Program-made: the position numbers and the translations under genes
Source: Naegleria gruberi
Lineage: Eukaryota
NCBI GenBank assembly: GCA_000004985.1
Contig: GG738856.1
Strand: one strand, 5' to 3'
DNA: 64,000 nt
Shown here: positions 3,073 to 11,316 of the stretch, piece after piece
Position numbering within the stretch: the first letter of the stretch is position 1
Layout: the number at the start of each line of letters is the position of its first letter
Notes under the pieces: model-generated
Database searches by the model: none
Told to the model about the DNA's origin: nothing
Seen by the model: only the letters and a program-made list of their open reading frames with translations

Positions 3073-6000
3073 ATGAACAACAATTCATCATCATCAACAA
3101 CCAATAGTAGTAGTAGTAGTTGGCAAGCAGTTCGTGAATGGCTCCTCGTGAATGATAAACAACAAGACACATGGGAACAAACTCTCATCAAAAAGTTGTT
3201 GAATTCCTCCTCCGATTTTAACAAGTCCATCCTCATTGTCGAAGATTCACTCCATGAAGGATCTTCCACATTGGAAAATCTATCCTCCATCTACTCTATC
3301 AAAAACACCACCCTCTCAGCAGCAGATTCCAATACTAGTATTTATGCTGTTTTCCAAGTAAGAATTGAAGGAATGACTTGTGGTAATTGTTCGGGATTGG
3401 TCACTAGAGTAATGAAAGGATATTTGAGTGACAGATTTAATTCAAGTCAAGAGAGTGTGATTGGAAACTATTTCCATCATGTGAGTCTGGAAAAGAAGAG
3501 ATTAGTTTGCATTGTTAGGAGTGATTGTTTGGATCCATCGAAAACACATGAGGATGAAATTATGCAAATCATAGCCCATATCAAGGATAATACTAGCTTT
3601 GATCCTTTTCCAATCAAGTCGTTTTATAAGACGCTGGAAGCAAATGCAAGTGTGTCAATTGTCAGAGCTGGTTTTGAAATTGATCATGAATTAATTACTG
3701 AAGAAGTTTTGCAAGGAAAAACAACAAGAAACAAAAGAGACACTGTCATTCTTGTAAGCGACAAGAAAGATATGGCTAAACAATCGTCACCACAAGAAAT
3801 ATCAAATGCTCTCAACGATGCTTTGAACAAAACACCAACATTAACAACATCAACCATGAAAAATGATGATGATGAATTCGAGGAAGTGATTGATTTGAAT
3901 AGAGACAGTTTGGATAATGAACCAAGTAGTTTTGCTGGTCTTTTGGATGATGAAAGTGATGAAGGAAAAATTCCAAAATCTGCCAGCAAGGCATCCTTCT
4001 TTGATTCAATTTTGAAAGCTGTTGGACTCTCACATAATATTTCTAATCCATATACACGAGTTGGATTTGATGAGGAGGCTAGTCAAGAGATTGAATTAGT
4101 GGACAATAGTGGAAGTTTAGATCTAAATGTAACAGGTATGCACTGTTCGTCATGTGTATCAAAAGTAGAGGGTACATTAAAGAAGGTGAATGGTATCAAG
4201 AAGGTTTCTGTTTCCTTGATGACCAACTCTGCCACTGTAGATTATGATCCAGCCCTTCTCACATCTCAAGAAATCATTGAGGAAATTGAGTCTATTGGGT
4301 TCCAAGCTTGTAAAAAACCACCAAAAACAAAGAAACAAGACGCAGTTGACCAATCCTTCCTTATTATCAATGAATGGAAGATCAAGTTTATTGTTTCCCT
4401 CCTCTTGACCATTCCTGTTGTTGTTTTGACCATGTCCAACAAGAGCAAATACTCTGGTCAAGAACTTCAAATGTTCAGATTCCGATTTTCTGCATGGGAA
4501 AAGATCAAATATGTATTACTGAATTATGGATGTATGCTCTTGACATTTATTATTCACTTTATTACTGGTTGGCATTACCACAAGAATGCCTTCAAAGCTT
4601 TGAGAAATTACTATGCCGACATGAATGTACTGATATCATTGAGTACTAATGCTGCCTTTTTCTATTCTATTATTTTATTATTTATTAGTACTTTGGAAAT
4701 GTTTGGAATTATTAATCAGACAGTATCCAAAGCACCATCCTATTTATTTGAAACTTGTGCCATGACTTTAATGTTCCAAAATCTTGGTAAATATCTGCAT
4801 TCTATTGCAAAGAACAAAACAACTGAATCTCTCTCAGCACTGGCTCAACTTCAACCTGCCAAGGCCAATATTGTTGAGAATGTGAAGGATGAATCTGCTC
4901 TATCTTTCAGTGCTAATACGAGAGAAGTTTTCGTTGAGGAAGTTTCTGTTGGAGACTATGTCATGGTCAAATGTGGACACACTATTCCTTGTGATGGAGA
5001 AGTTGTTCTTGGACAATGCTTTGTCAATGAGAGTATGCTCACAGGAGAATCAAAGAGAATTTACAAAAAGAAAGGAAGTAAGGTTCTAGGTGGTACTGTA
5101 AATGAACAATTTTCTGGCAGTGAAGATGGTGGAGTTATTATTGTGAAAATCACCAAGACTGGTCAAGATAGTGTGTTGGGACAAATTATCAACCTCGTAC
5201 AACAAGCTCAACACAATAAGGCTCCTATTCAAGAGTTTGCCGATAAGGTCTCTAAAGTTTTCGTTCCTATTGTGGTGGCCTTGTCTCTTTTCACCTTTGT
5301 AACTTGGTACTTCTTCTCTGTGACTGGTACTGTTAATAATGGAGCCAGTAGAGTTGATTCTATCATGTTTGCCCTCATCTTCTCCATGTCAGTTCTCAGT
5401 ATTTCCTGTCCTTGTGCGATTGGTTTGGCAACTCCAACAGCAGTTATGGTTGCAACAGGTATTGGAGCATCTAATGGTATTTTGGTGAAGGGAGGACTTC
5501 CATTAGAAATTGCACACAAGGTGAATTGCATTTGTTTTGACAAGACTGGTACAATTACTAAAGGAAAGGCTTCAGTTGTGAATTATGGATTCTTTGCTGA
5601 AGATGCTTCAAAGATTGGTATTAAGGAACAAGAGTTTTTCGAAATTCTTGTCGGAGCTGAAAGAGCTAGTGAACATCCTTTGGCTGAGGCTATTGTCAAG
5701 TATTTCTCACCAAAGATTGAACATCACGTCGATCATACTGACACTTCTCTCAGTATCATTGGAGGAAAAGGTTTAAGATACATCTATACAAATAAGAGTG
5801 ATATGAAGCAAAATACTGTTCTAATTGGTAAATCCTCATTCCTCAGTCAAGAAGGTGTCATTGTTACTGATACCAAAGATCAGAAATTTGAAAATACCAA
5901 GAAGAGTCTCAAGGAGGGCCATACTGTTGTTTTCTGTTCTGTAAATAATAATTTGATTGGTTATGTTGCTCTCTTTGATGAAATGAAACCTGAAGCCAGA

Positions 6001-6546
6001 GAAGTCATCAAGACATTGACTGAAGATTTTGGAATTAGGTGCATTGTTATGAGCGGTGACAACAAGCAAGCAGTTCAACAATCTGTTTCATTACTAGGCT
6101 CCAAATTGGAATACCTTCACGATAAGACACCAAGTGAAAAATGCCAATTTATTGAATCACTTAAAAAGCAAGGTTTTACTGTTGCTATGGTTGGAGATGG
6201 CATTAATGATTCACCATCTTTAAGTGCTGCTGATGTAGGCATTGCCATTGGTGACGGAACTGATGTTGCCATTAAGAGCTCTGACATCATCTTGTTAAAT
6301 TCTGATTTGAGAGATGTAGTCACAACCATTGACTTGTCTAAAAAGACCTTCTCTAGAATTAGACTCAATCACTTACTTTCTCTTGGATATAACTTGTTCA
6401 TGATTCCATTGGCATGTGGTGTATTGTGGCCTTTCTATGGTATTGTTTTGCCACCTTATTTATCTTCCATGTTAATGATGTTCTCCAGTTTGAGTGTTTT
6501 GGCAAGTAGTTTGTCTCTTCGTCTCACTTTCAATAAGAGAAAATAA
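3073..6546 (+). CDS. Copper-transporting P1B-type ATPase (ATP7-like)
   Basis: Two HMA metal-binding motifs (GMTCGNC, GMHCSSC). CPC motif (SISCPCAIGLATPT). Phosphorylation site DKTGTIT. Hinge motif MVGDGINDSPSL. Uninterrupted 1157-aa ORF with ATG at 3073. Confidence 0.9.
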   Translation: MNNNSSSSTTNSSSSSWQAVREWLLVNDKQQDTWEQTLIKKLLNSSSDFNKSILIVEDSLHEGSSTLENLSSIYSIKNTTLSAADSNTSIYAVFQVRIEGMTCGNCSGLVTRVMKGYLSDRFNSSQESVIGNYFHHVSLEKKRLVCIVRSDCLDPSKTHEDEIMQIIAHIKDNTSFDPFPIKSFYKTLEANASVSIVRAGFEIDHELITEEVLQGKTTRNKRDTVILVSDKKDMAKQSSPQEISNALNDALNKTPTLTTSTMKNDDDEFEEVIDLNRDSLDNEPSSFAGLLDDESDEGKIPKSASKASFFDSILKAVGLSHNISNPYTRVGFDEEASQEIELVDNSGSLDLNVTGMHCSSCVSKVEGTLKKVNGIKKVSVSLMTNSATVDYDPALLTSQEIIEEIESIGFQACKKPPKTKKQDAVDQSFLIINEWKIKFIVSLLLTIPVVVLTMSNKSKYSGQELQMFRFRFSAWEKIKYVLLNYGCMLLTFIIHFITGWHYHKNAFKALRNYYADMNVLISLSTNAAFFYSIILLFISTLEMFGIINQTVSKAPSYLFETCAMTLMFQNLGKYLHSIAKNKTTESLSALAQLQPAKANIVENVKDESALSFSANTREVFVEEVSVGDYVMVKCGHTIPCDGEVVLGQCFVNESMLTGESKRIYKKKGSKVLGGTVNEQFSGSEDGGVIIVKITKTGQDSVLGQIINLVQQAQHNKAPIQEFADKVSKVFVPIVVALSLFTFVTWYFFSVTGTVNNGASRVDSIMFALIFSMSVLSISCPCAIGLATPTAVMVATGIGASNGILVKGGLPLEIAHKVNCICFDKTGTITKGKASVVNYGFFAEDASKIGIKEQEFFEILVGAERASEHPLAEAIVKYFSPKIEHHVDHTDTSLSIIGGKGLRYIYTNKSDMKQNTVLIGKSSFLSQEGVIVTDTKDQKFENTKKSLKEGHTVVFCSVNNNLIGYVALFDEMKPEAREVIKTLTEDFGIRCIVMSGDNKQAVQQSVSLLGSKLEYLHDKTPSEKCQFIESLKKQGFTVAMVGDGINDSPSLSAADVGIAIGDGTDVAIKSSDIILLNSDLRDVVTTIDLSKKTFSRIRLNHLLSLGYNLFMIPLACGVLWPFYGIVLPPYLSSMLMMFSSLSVLASSLSLRLTFNKRK

Positions 6547-6600
6547 ATGAAAGATTAATTTATTTACAATGTATTTCTAATAATTTTAATAGTGCAATGA

Positions 6601-6960
6601 TTAATGTCCAAAACCATACAGAGTTCTTCCATGTCTTCTCAATGAATAGACAATATCCATCGATGTTACAGTTTTCCTTCTGGCATGCTCTGTATAGGTA
6701 ACAGCATCTCTAATAATTCCCTCCAAGAAATTCTTCAAAACTCCTCTGGTTTCATCATAGATTTGTCCAGAGATACGTTTCACACCACCTCTTCTGGCCA
6801 ATCGCCTAATGGCTGGCTTTGTAATGCCAGTAATATTATTTCTTATCACTCTATTTGTTCTCTGAGAGTAAAATGCATTGAGAAATTAAGTATTCTGTTG
6901 AACTACCTACTTTGAATCCACCCTTGCCAAGACCTTTACCTCCCTTTCCTCTTCCTGTCA
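6601..6960 (-). CDS. Histone H4 (divergent variant), 2 exons: 6910..6960 and 6601..6861, intron 6862..6909
   Basis: Exon 1 encodes [17 protein letters not shown]. Exon 2 encodes [92 protein letters not shown] donor and CTCTCAG acceptor. 103 aa in total. Confidence 0.8.
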
Positions 6961-7454
6961 TTTGATGTTGAGATTTTTTTGTTTTTATTTGGTTTTGTTA
7001 TTTTTGAGTAGGGAAATGAACTCTCAGTTTAACGAATGTTCCAAATTATTTCGTAATTAGGCAAAGTTGAGTAATATATTTACAATAAATGACAAAAGCA
7101 TTTACAGTTAGTAAGTTTATTTACAATTTGCGGAGTTACTAAGCGCCATGTAATTTTCTGCAGATAATTAAATCATGAAAATATTTTATCATACGAAAGA
7201 CTAAGTGTATGAATACTATTGGAAAGATCAGCAATTCTTGGATAATGTTAAAATGGAATGATTAAACTTATATGCAGTTTCGTATAGTTTTCAATTCCAA
7301 GTTCCATTTTCAATGAATGTTACCAATGCAAAATTTTGGTCAATTAGGTAACCCATCACTTCCGTTCCATTTCATTCAGTGTTAAACAAATCCAATACCT
7401 TCAAAATCAAAAAAAAATATAACAACATTCCTCTGTTTTTTCACTATTCGAAAC

Positions 7455-7844
7455 ATGGTCAGAATAACCGATTTCAAAAAGACATTCACTTGTCCAAAAT
7501 GTCAATCCCAAAACGATAACGCCACCATCAAACAAGCAGAAAATTATGTAGTCACAAGAGAATGCTCCTCATGCTCTCATCAGCAAACTCTTTTCATTCC
7601 AGCAACTTCAGGTTTAATTCCATTAGAAAGGTCAACCAAAGCTTGTACTGCCACATGTTCCTGCACACAATTCAGACCTACCCATAATGATGGAATTACT
7701 TGTGAGTGTGGACATTTGGGAAGTTATCATGGACATTCCTATGGTTTGGGTAGAGATTTAGTGATGAAGAGTTCACTCATTGATAATGGAATTCTTTCTT
7801 TTGATGTGGATAGTTGTGCTGATATGGTGGAGGATAATCAATAA
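7455..7844 (+). CDS. Hypothetical small Cys/His-rich protein (putative zinc-binding)
   Basis: 129-aa ORF with a real ATG. Contains CPKC...CSSC and CTATCSC...CECGH...H motifs. No recognisable family. Confidence 0.3.
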   Translation: MVRITDFKKTFTCPKCQSQNDNATIKQAENYVVTRECSSCSHQQTLFIPATSGLIPLERSTKACTATCSCTQFRPTHNDGITCECGHLGSYHGHSYGLGRDLVMKSSLIDNGILSFDVDSCADMVEDNQ

Positions 7845-8271
7845 TTTTAATAATTGAATGTAAATTTGATGATGAATGTGGATGATTGGTTCTTCAATAA
7901 AAAAATGTCTCACAACAGAACAGGCAAATTTGATGATGGAGAATAATTTTATTAATGTATTATTATATAATTAATATGAAAGTTTAAAATATATTAGCTG
8001 TTTTTCGGAATAATGTTTGGTGGCCAAGTAATGGCTTGATATGGTGCAAATTGTGCAACTGTAGTGGTTAAGCTTGCTCACTTACAAATCCTGTAAATTC
8101 TGATGGCGCCAAATCATCGTCCATGATTTCTTGTTTGAAAACACAAAAGAATTTGCCTTGATCAAAACGAGTTCATGCTTGCGAGGAATTCTTCAGCGAG
8201 CAAAAATCATATGCAACACAAGAATTCATCAACAAAAAAAATCAAACAACAACAATTGTCCTATTTTCACA

Positions 8272-11200
8272 ATGTTGAATAATAATAGAACATTTAAACC
8301 ACCAATAATTGATAATAATGTAACTCTTGGTTTGGGTCCTGACAGAATGGGTGTTTTATTCACGGATATGTTGACAGCCATTAGAATTCCTGCCAATCAT
8401 TGGTTATTAGCTTTGATCAGTGGTGGTAGTGGTGCTGATGATCAACAAGTGAGAGTAAAGCTTGTGCATGAAACGTTCCGATATGTAAATTCAGAACCAA
8501 CTCTTGAAATGAGCCAGGAAATTGACTTGCAGTTCCAAGTCATGTCACGATTGATTTGTATTCCACCAAATCAACAACAATTGATAGAATATTATAGAAA
8601 TACATTGCCATCAGCAGATTATCTTCTTTTTGAGAAGTATCACAAGTGGAATATAAGAATTGAATCGGTGGTTTACCAAAGATATGTGACTCTTGATGTT
8701 GTGTTAATTTGCCAAAATGAAAAAGAACTTCCAAAGAATTCATTGGAGTATTTAATGAAGACAGCTCCATACACGTTTAGAGATTTCCGTCTTCTTTATG
8801 AAAATTGTGAATTGTACAGTAATTTATTCAAGGTTGACTGCGAAATGTTTCAACAATTCTTTGGACGAAACTATCCTCTTGTTTGTACAGTCAAAGATGT
8901 AGATTCTAATCCAAATATTATTGGAAATAATAACATGTCCATTCAAAATTCATTCTCAAGATTTGCCAGAATATTAATGGATTTGAATTTGGGCAAATGT
9001 ATGATGATTGTGAAATTCGAAACTAAAGATGACAACATCAAAAGAAAGTGGTGCGAGAATGGGATAAGCTACGAAGGCCATTGCTACAAATTCTTTAGCA
9101 CTTCCAACTCTGGAATGAAAGGCAGCTCTGCAGTTTTTATCAACTCAACCTTACTCAACTTGGAAACTGTCAAACTTCTCGTTGGAAGCTCCTTCGACAA
9201 GGCATTACAGACAGGTGGTGTCAGAAAGGTAGCAAGCAGAATTGGTCTCAGTATTGGAACAAGCATTCAAAGTTTAGCAACTTTTGAATTTGATCAAATT
9301 TTCTGTCTTCCACAGAACATCGAAGATGAGTTTCCAATAACTGATGGTTCTGGATTAGCAAGATCTGATTTCTTTGAGGAGATTTTAGAAAAGACCTATG
9401 CCATTCCTTATTTCGAAATGGAAAAATTGGCAAAACATCCAGAAATGAAACTCTCCAGAAGGTTAGAAACTGATTACAAAAACGTGAGTGCCATTCAAGT
9501 GAGAATGCTTGGAGCCAAAGGAGTTTTACAAAAGATTCCAGATTCATTGTGGAAAGTATTGCAAGTCAAGTGGAAATTCCCAGATTCAACAAAGGTGATT
9601 TTGAGAAATTCAATGATCAAGTTTGAAACTGCTTATTACAAAAAGATTGATGTATTGAGTTATTCATCTGCTACGGGAGGGTCGATTTCAAGAGGAGTCA
9701 TGTCTTGCTTATTGGAGAGGACAGATCACAGAGAGGAAATGGAAGAAATTTTCATGAATGATCTCGACGATTATTTGAAAGAAATGGAGGACAATAGAAA
9801 TGATCCAATCTATGTCTGCAACTATCTTTTAACTGGAACAGGTAATACAAAGGAAGGATTGGCCAAACAATTGATTATGGCAGATCATCCACTCAATAAT
9901 TATTTCATTGATTCAGTAATTAGAGAAAATATCAAAACAAGACATTTGGGATTAGTCAATGATAATCTTTCTTTCAAAATCAACAGTCATTATTGTGTCA
10001 GTGCGTTGGGAGGTGTGGATGAAAGTGGGGAACTCAAAGAAGGTGAAATTCACATTAATTGTGATGCCTTTACAAATAGCCCATACTATCTGGAACTCGA
10101 TTACGTTTTAGTTTATAGAAATCCTTTGGGGTATGAGGGTGATATTCAAAAACTCAAAATTAAGAAAAATCCTCAATCAGAATTCCTCAAATCAAGACGA
10201 AACTCAATCACCTTTGCCATGTCCAAGGGCACTAGAAATCCTATTGGATTTATGCAAGGCGGTGATTTTGATGGTGACAGATACAATATCATTTTCCATC
10301 CAAAGATTGTGAAATATTTCAAGCAAGACGAAAGTTTGAATTTGGATTATAATAATAATGATATTTACGAACAATTTAAAAAGAATGAATCTATTTCCAG
10401 TCTGGAGACGATACCTGTTATGCAACCCAACACCAACCCAACCATTCAAGACATTATTGAAGAACACATTAACATGTTCACTGAAAATTCTCCAATAGGT
10501 ACTTTAAGTGGTTACACATCTAACCTTAGAGAAACAACTGATATTCCAAAGAAAAAGTTGGCTTCCAAGCTATTCGCAGATTGTATCGATTCTATTAAGG
10601 GAAGTTCATTCCCTTATGACCTGATTAACATTGTAAAATCGAAAATTCCTGAATGGGAAGAGTATTTGAATGAAAGAGTTAAGAAGAGTGAATTTTGGAA
10701 AGATGAAAATCTGTCAAATCCACAACCTAATCATTTAGTGTGTAGAATGTTTGATATGGTAGTACAATCGTTGAAGAAAATCACTGAAGATCCAATTAAT
10801 ACTCAACTCGATCCTGATTTTGAAACACCTAATCCAAAATATTTGAAATTCCATACTCAATGGAAACAAGAATTCGAAAATCTTTTCAAAGAATGGTGCA
10901 ATTATTGGACAAAGCAATTATCAGCCAATCCAGAAACAGAAAAGGACAAATCTGAAACTAAATCACACAAGAGAATTTTACTGAACAAAATTAAGGAAAT
11001 TCTTCCACTGCAAGAAGAAAAAAGTGAATCAATTGACTGGCGTGCAAAATTCAATGAAGGAACAGATGGCAATGATATGAGATGTGAAAAGGCAGCATTC
11101 TTTATGAGGTATAATCATGTGCAAAATCAGAAAGGTTTAATCAAGAGATTGCAAAGTCCTTTCGTCTATACTTGTTGCATGCTTTATTTGAATATTTACA

Positions 11201-11316
11201 AGCAATTCAAACAATTTGAAAAATTTGGAAAAATTCCACAGATTGTTTCATCCAATTACAAAGTTTCTCTCAAGAAACAACTTTCGAATATCACAAGAAC
11301 AACACCTGTAGAATAA
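8272..11316 (+). CDS. Eukaryotic-type RNA-dependent RNA polymerase (cellular RdRP/RDR domain protein)
   Basis: RDR-family signature blocks: YEGHCYKFFSTSNSGMKGSSAVFI, ARIGLSIGTSIQS, VSAIQVRMLGAKGVL, VYRNPLGYEGDIQ and the catalytic GGDFDGDRYNIIF (DbDGD). First ATG is at 8272; the frame is open from 8131. No helicase domain in this ORF. Confidence 0.75.
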   Translation: MLNNNRTFKPPIIDNNVTLGLGPDRMGVLFTDMLTAIRIPANHWLLALISGGSGADDQQVRVKLVHETFRYVNSEPTLEMSQEIDLQFQVMSRLICIPPNQQQLIEYYRNTLPSADYLLFEKYHKWNIRIESVVYQRYVTLDVVLICQNEKELPKNSLEYLMKTAPYTFRDFRLLYENCELYSNLFKVDCEMFQQFFGRNYPLVCTVKDVDSNPNIIGNNNMSIQNSFSRFARILMDLNLGKCMMIVKFETKDDNIKRKWCENGISYEGHCYKFFSTSNSGMKGSSAVFINSTLLNLETVKLLVGSSFDKALQTGGVRKVASRIGLSIGTSIQSLATFEFDQIFCLPQNIEDEFPITDGSGLARSDFFEEILEKTYAIPYFEMEKLAKHPEMKLSRRLETDYKNVSAIQVRMLGAKGVLQKIPDSLWKVLQVKWKFPDSTKVILRNSMIKFETAYYKKIDVLSYSSATGGSISRGVMSCLLERTDHREEMEEIFMNDLDDYLKEMEDNRNDPIYVCNYLLTGTGNTKEGLAKQLIMADHPLNNYFIDSVIRENIKTRHLGLVNDNLSFKINSHYCVSALGGVDESGELKEGEIHINCDAFTNSPYYLELDYVLVYRNPLGYEGDIQKLKIKKNPQSEFLKSRRNSITFAMSKGTRNPIGFMQGGDFDGDRYNIIFHPKIVKYFKQDESLNLDYNNNDIYEQFKKNESISSLETIPVMQPNTNPTIQDIIEEHINMFTENSPIGTLSGYTSNLRETTDIPKKKLASKLFADCIDSIKGSSFPYDLINIVKSKIPEWEEYLNERVKKSEFWKDENLSNPQPNHLVCRMFDMVVQSLKKITEDPINTQLDPDFETPNPKYLKFHTQWKQEFENLFKEWCNYWTKQLSANPETEKDKSETKSHKRILLNKIKEILPLQEEKSESIDWRAKFNEGTDGNDMRCEKAAFFMRYNHVQNQKGLIKRLQSPFVYTCCMLYLNIYKQFKQFEKFGKIPQIVSSNYKVSLKKQLSNITRTTPVE

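Follow-up and report, generated by a model that had tools for sequence, protein, structure and literature searches.

The stretch of DNA analysed here, which we call the window, covers 64,000 nucleotides of Naegleria gruberi contig GG738856.1. Its minus strand carries, from 6961 down to 6601, a two-exon histone H4 gene interrupted by a single GT-AG intron after codon 17. The first-pass annotation had already recognised a divergent, intron-containing H4 at this place, and the spliced product is indeed 100% identical over its full length (103 amino acids) to XP_002679793.1 (EFC47049.1, UniProt D2V7R9), annotated as 'histone H4 [Naegleria gruberi]' in the NCBI/JGI model and located on a scaffold of 602,266 bp. 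Our gene model is thus the same as the existing annotation, and the window is nuclear DNA of N. gruberi. Two details of the first pass need correction: the gene had been ended at 6960, one base short of the ATG at 6961, and the intron, correctly placed after codon 17, is 49 rather than 48 nucleotides long. The gene and its surroundings comprise the following features.

3073-6546, plus strand: copper-transporting P-type ATPase gene, convergent to the H4 gene
6559-6564, minus strand: AATAAA, poly(A)-signal-like hexamer in the H4 3' flank
6585-6590, minus strand: ATTAAA, poly(A)-signal-like hexamer in the H4 3' flank
6601..6861, minus strand: H4 exon 2, residues 18-103 and TAA stop, with T18/N19/R20, N24 and the entire histone fold
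6862..6910, minus strand: H4 intron, phase 0, 49 nucleotides, GTAGGT...CTCTCAG, 33% G+C
6911..6961, minus strand: H4 exon 1, ATG at 6961 plus 16 codons (17 codons in all), with the K5/K8/K12/K16 cassette and F replacing A15
6962..7454, no strand assigned: upstream intergenic region of 493 bp, presumed H4 promoter, common to the divergent Zn-ribbon ORF
7455..7844, plus strand: small Cys-rich ORF of 129 amino acids with a weak Zn-ribbon match, divergent from the H4 gene and sharing its presumed promoter region
8131-11316, plus strand: eukaryotic RNA-dependent RNA polymerase gene (PF05183, E=6e-49), about 1.2 kb upstream of the H4 gene

Unspliced, the frame stops after 36 amino acids, and among the GT-AG splices that we tried only the 49-nucleotide one gives a 103-residue product collinear with H4 and free of indels. 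An A-rich leader lies immediately 5' of the ATG. At the other end, 54 bp (6547-6600) separate the stop codon of H4 from that of the copper ATPase, and the 3' flank of the H4 gene falls within this interval; the 3' UTRs of the two genes probably overlap as antisense transcripts. Between 6300 and 7500 we found no match to the histone 3' stem-loop (Rfam RF00032) at E<=10, nor to any other RNA family. This absence does not discriminate between kinds of H4 gene, since canonical Naegleria histone mRNAs may themselves lack a stem-loop. A DOCK-family protein is encoded beyond the RNA-dependent RNA polymerase gene, and the neighbours of the H4 gene are ordinary cellular genes. Searches of the 64-kb window with human histone queries found no further histone gene, and neither did searches with the H3, H3 variant, H2A.X-type and H2A.Z sequences of N. 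gruberi.

Exon 2 alone matches H4 with E=4e-43 in tblastn, far beyond chance, and the full product matches H4 chains of the PDB over residues 1-102 with E=6e-51 in phmmer. The Pfam families PF15511 and PF02969 score above their cut-offs, PF00125 just below. The alignment with human H4 is collinear over the full length, histone fold included, without gaps and with 80% identity, and the N-terminal cassette K5/K8/K12/K16 is present, residues 1-14 being those of canonical H4 except for S1T. The basic patch, on the other hand, reads K16-R17-T18-N19-R20 in place of K16-R17-H18-R19-K20. The segment from 6961 to 6601 is thus a genuine, intact, spliced histone H4 gene of N. gruberi.

How unusual is this H4? 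Human H4 has a different residue at 20 of the 102 mature positions. The first pass had counted about 19 and listed 12 substitutions; all 12 hold, and S1T, L22I, Q27T, E52D, V65I, A83S, V86I and A89S are to be added. The divergence had been taken as exceptional, which by itself it is not when protists are considered: their H4s are often only 82-88% identical to the human protein (86% in Percolomonas, 82% in Carpediemonas, 86% in Blepharisma), so that the Naegleria protein stands at the low end of the protist range. We compared the substitutions with about 216 H4 sequences fetched during our searches. Eleven of the 20 differences are shared with other protist H4s (T1, I22, T27, Q49, D52, N60, G64, I65, R77, S83 and I86). 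The nine that are unusual in this set (A15F, H18T, R19N, K20R, D24N, A89S, K91R, Q93H and G102H) all fall in residues 15-24 or 89-102, and the combination of T18, N19 and R20 occurs in no other of the 216 sequences. R20 taken singly, which the first pass had correctly noticed here, is also carried by the protein named H4 in Blepharisma, a heterotrich ciliate, and by related metagenomic sequences.

Changes gather at two places. The first cluster covers residues 15-24 (F15, T18, N19, R20, I22 and N24), and the second lies in the C-terminal region that packs against H2A-H2B (I86, S89, R91, H93 and H102); exon 2 ends in TLYGFGH and carries the altered S89, R91, H93 and H102. Measured against the nearest H4 that we could find (P0054, described below), synonymous sites are saturated (pS 0.79), and pN, in segments that were chosen after inspecting the data, rises from 0 (residues 1-14) to 0.074 (fold) and 0.46 (residues 17-24). 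Change relative to P0054 is concentrated in the basic patch rather than spread evenly over the protein. Judged from the sequences compared, this pattern appears selective rather than random.

A search of 5.8 billion protein clusters returned no relative more than 87% identical, either with the full-length protein or with exon 2 alone, a query designed to catch ORF fragments of intron-containing orthologues. The Naegleria H4 itself comes from one gene and forms a 90% cluster on its own; no orthologue with the same diagnostic residues was found in the protein clusters searched. Of the checks named by the first pass, the database comparison gives the N. gruberi 'histone H4' as its match, and the orthologue look-up gives nothing above 87%. 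What these searches return are cluster representatives; the canonical H4s sit inside very large 90% clusters, and among the hits they are drowned out by mispredicted multi-domain proteins and by thousands of clusters of equal score. In a metagenome scan based on the conserved KPAIRRLA pattern, the matches listed were mostly canonical H4, and the best among them was a ciliate-like sequence 87% identical to ours; environmental orthologues may lie beyond the matches listed. The supplements of Marinov and Lynch contain no Naegleria sequences, and our literature search found no mention of the D2V7R9 protein, of a Naegleria H4 variant or of Naegleria H4K20.

We also looked among the fetched sequences for a canonical H4 of Naegleria, picking candidates for rare residues held in common with the window H4. 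None was retained. The nearest relative, P0054 (on ENA contig L001), is 86% identical, intronless and keeps K20; it uses CGT for 6 of its 15 arginine codons, unlike the H3 genes of Naegleria. P0160 adjoins an H2B gene on a contig of 53% G+C whose other ORFs are nearly all without family matches. P0147 lies on a 909-kb contig, and the same H4 is found on a second contig beside a capsid gene of nucleocytoplasmic large DNA viruses (NCLDV). P0061 lies on a gene-poor contig bearing a retrotransposon, P0080 in histone quartet repeats of a marine metagenome, and P0157 was seen only on contigs of about 1 kb.

Some of these sequences deserve a description of their own. The H4 P0160 forms a divergent H2B-H4 pair at 9366-10315 of two gene-dense, possibly viral contigs (L088 and L089, from Logan SRR23867094 and SRR23867091), and has D24N and L49Q in common with the Naegleria H4. 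P0147 is near-canonical, 88% identical to human H4 and 89% to that of Percolomonas, and stands next to another histone gene on its two carriers (L094, the 909-kb contig of JGI 3300042922, and L095, from Logan SRR35179700, about 9147-10309). L095 also carries an NCLDV major-capsid gene, at a distance of about 2 kb from the H4. Apparently we have here a giant virus whose core histones are eukaryote-like. Finally, P0164 (contigs L082-L087 of JGI metagenomes) and P0162 are H4-like proteins with a short tail, MKGIGTGGVKRTRRLIRESITGV, that lacks the N-terminal cassette. They have T18, R20, I22, T27 and S89 in common with the Naegleria H4, and their T18 and R20 indicate that H18T together with K20R arose more than once.

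Is this protein the ordinary H4 of the species or a variant that stands beside it? Histone H3 provided a control. We took the canonical H3 sequence of N. gruberi from the supplement of bioRxiv 10.1101/2021.11.30.470311. Three genes (EFC36852, EFC42318 and EFC49702) encode this exact protein, and its 90% cluster also contains the H3 of N. fowleri (three genes), N. lovaniensis and Willaertia magna; the genomes of these three species are therefore in the database searched. It is identical at 136 of 138 positions (about 99%) to the H3 common to N. fowleri, N. lovaniensis and Willaertia. Canonical histones in this clade are therefore nearly invariant and multi-copy. In addition, N. gruberi H3 is about 90% identical to human H3.3 as against only 80% for the window H4 and human H4. 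H4 normally evolves more slowly than H3.

Gene structure and codon usage differ in the same comparison. The canonical H3 genes of the clade (L098-L105) are dispersed, intronless and never adjacent to H4: each of the eight loci fetched, from N. fowleri, N. lovaniensis, W. magna and one ENA metagenome contig, stands alone, with no H4 partner within 10 kb. Head-to-head H3-H4 pairs are common in other eukaryotes. The first-pass annotation had taken the absence of an H3 partner as a sign of a variant; no other histone is indeed present in the window, but solitude is not diagnostic where canonical H3 genes are solitary too. The window H4 has an intron, whereas H3 genes are intronless both in their N. 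gruberi-type form, found on two environmental contigs (L096 and L097), and in the sister species. N. gruberi-type H3 genes have 13 C-ending against 8 T-ending codons, with AAG and AAA at 13:4 (L096) or 12:5. The window H4 has 4 C-ending against 21 T-ending codons, AAG and AAA at 4:4, and a GC3 of 0.29, equal to that of its neighbouring genes. The codon contrast is significant (Fisher p=0.002), with the proviso that it compares short genes for two different proteins, and the bias, shared by the H3 genes of N. fowleri and N. lovaniensis, is absent from the two W. magna genes.

H3 is thus three-copy and about 99% conserved, while the H4 is single, has no relative above 87% and follows background codon usage. 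For these reasons the window H4 is probably a paralogue that coexists with a canonical H4, whose presence the H3 control suggests. The first-pass proposal of a lineage-specific variant is well supported to that extent, by an indirect route. A single-copy, species-restricted H4 variant is the most likely description, and in kind we would call it a lineage-specific H4 whose tail lacks K20 and most of the basic patch. For the fuller reading, in which this intact, intron-containing, single-copy paralogue of N. gruberi is not the bulk replication-coupled H4 and has the effects on nucleosomes proposed below, we estimate a probability of about 0.7.

A paralogue need not have a role of its own, and a young duplicate, weakly expressed, tolerated and drifting in the manner of fungal H4E, would also be single-copy, without a detected orthologue and of background codon usage; an H4 variant with no detectable function has been described (PMC10878826). 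Against this, the reading frame, both splice sites, the four tail lysines and the fold residues are intact, and the nine unusual changes spare the fold core. K20R and K91R preserve charge at known modification sites, which, in segments admittedly chosen post hoc, suggests constraint together with directed change. We therefore consider plain drift unlikely.

Alternatively, the window H4 could be the only or main H4 of N. gruberi, a lineage-wide canonical protein that has drifted in the absence of Dot1 and of K20 methyltransferases. The annotation plainly calls it 'histone H4', it was the sole Naegleria-named protein in our H4 searches of cluster representatives, and N. gruberi has few histone genes, its sole H2A.X-type H2A (EFC47077) lying on the same 602-kb scaffold. 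Dot1 is reported missing from the species, other protist H4s are also only 82-88% identical to human H4, and that of Blepharisma has R20. The H3 control speaks against this interpretation, since a canonical H4 would be expected to behave like the canonical H3, present in three copies and about 99% conserved in Naegleria and Willaertia, whereas the window H4 occurs once and lacks any relative above 87%, even in a database that includes those genomes. The presence of an intron and codon usage at background level likewise set it apart from the biased, intronless N. gruberi-type H3 genes. An ordinary, drifted H4 is in our opinion improbable.

We give very little credence to a gene-model artefact (a wrong exon join) or a giant-virus insertion: giant-virus contigs with a near-canonical H4 do exist in databases, but exon 1 is an exact H4 N-terminus, splicing yields 103 residues without an indel and agrees with the JGI/NCBI model, the G+C content and codon usage are those of the host neighbours, which are ordinary cellular genes (copper ATPase, RNA-dependent RNA polymerase, DOCK), and viral H4s, at 77-80% identity, are no nearer to the protein than cellular H4s are.

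Returning to the variant as the preferred reading, what might it do? With its fold and K5, K8, K12 and K16 preserved, it is predicted to behave as other H4s do in pairing with H3 and in nucleosome assembly. K20 of H4 is a methylation site, K91 is a site of acetylation and ubiquitylation where the H3-H4 tetramer meets the H2A-H2B dimer, and R17-H18-R19 is the epitope that both activates remodellers of the ISWI type and binds the acidic patch formed by H2A-H2B on a neighbouring nucleosome. In the Naegleria protein, R20 and R91 would keep the positive charge while making lysine methylation, acetylation and ubiquitylation impossible at these positions. T18 and N19, in place of H18 and R19, would remove most of the R17-H18-R19 epitope; T18 may add a phospho-acceptor, and F15 would put a bulky residue beside K16. 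Nucleosomes containing the variant might then be blind to signalling based on K20 and K91, poorer substrates for ISWI and less prone to fibre compaction. Its expression is probably lower than that of the canonical histone genes and differently regulated.

According to bioRxiv 10.1101/2021.11.30.470311, N. gruberi lacks a Dot1 orthologue, and KMT5B/C arose as opisthokont innovations. Selection to keep K20 and the basic patch may for this reason be relaxed in the lineage to begin with.

A second tail variant is encoded in the same genome. The H3 variant EFC37152 (D2W1A7) of N. gruberi has the fold of canonical H3 and the tail ARTKQTAYRGVGQK, with R8Y, K9R, S10G, T11V, G13Q and other changes, so that its ARKS module is destroyed. 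One gene encodes it, on a different scaffold from the H4, and the protein is alone in its 90% cluster. N. gruberi thus seems, from these protein sequences, to possess a private tail variant of H3 and another of H4, both with arginine in the place of a classical heterochromatin lysine. The two cases are alike in that the fold is unchanged and the tail modification module rewritten, though in different histones. That the two proteins are partners is speculation. It is a long shot that they form a dedicated nucleosome type, one devoid of the two classical heterochromatin methyl marks, resistant to compaction and perhaps confined to a special compartment. Naegleria has extrachromosomal rDNA circles, and such chromatin might be found there, or at a particular stage of the life cycle (cyst or flagellate).

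To our knowledge no other histone has as few known variants as H4, and each of these is a separate lineage-specific case. The first pass had called such variants extremely rare; rare they are, but there are precedents, and documented examples include H4V of Trypanosoma brucei, hominid H4G, a variant in Oikopleura, the bracovirus H4 and fungal H4E (PMC10878826). TbH4V, found at transcription termination sites, is comparable: it and the Naegleria H4 would both be lineage-restricted H4 paralogues of Discoba with the fold kept. According to the summary in PMC10878826, TbH4V has about 80% identity with the canonical H4 of its species; it differs from our case in that the canonical H4 of trypanosomes is itself highly divergent.

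Fungal H4E, known from Pezizomycotina and Glomeromycota, is similar as an extra H4 gene whose exon structure differs from that of the canonical genes, with divergence at both termini and an altered pattern of lysine and arginine (PMC10878826). However, H4E proteins have long terminal extensions, have often lost tail lysines (frequently K16) and are encoded with about seven introns, and the Naegleria H4, with 103 amino acids, no extensions, K5/8/12/16 in place and one intron, lies outside their definition. Deletion or overexpression of H4E produced no phenotype (PMC10878826). Hominid H4G, going by its description in PMC6895281, resembles the Naegleria protein as a variant restricted to a species or clade, in an unrelated lineage.

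The H4 of heterotrich ciliates (P0212 from Blepharisma, and the metagenomic P0158 and P0159) has several residues in common with the Naegleria protein, namely R20, I22, E52D and, in some sequences, Q93H. The presence of R20 in these proteins indicates that the nucleosome can work without K20. Heterotrichs differ in two respects: the protein bears the name H4 in five Blepharisma species (UniRef, n=5) and looks like the lineage's own H4, and its residues 18 and 19 are kept or basic (KKRHRRVIRE), in contrast to the T18/N19 of Naegleria, which lower the charge and for which no orthologue was detected.

Axenic culture of Naegleria is possible, and proteomics data on its histones exist (PXD031991). 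A minor H4 species with distinct peptides is thus a testable prediction. If the protein is a variant, as we favour, it would be a case from a free-living heterolobosean that keeps the acetylation cassette and the fold and dispenses with K20, K91 and H18-R19. Nature would then have supplied a separation-of-function allele that affects precisely the residues on which ISWI, docking to the acidic patch and K20 readers depend. If, instead, it were the only H4 of the species, a free-living eukaryote would be able to dispense with H4K20 and with the canonical basic patch.
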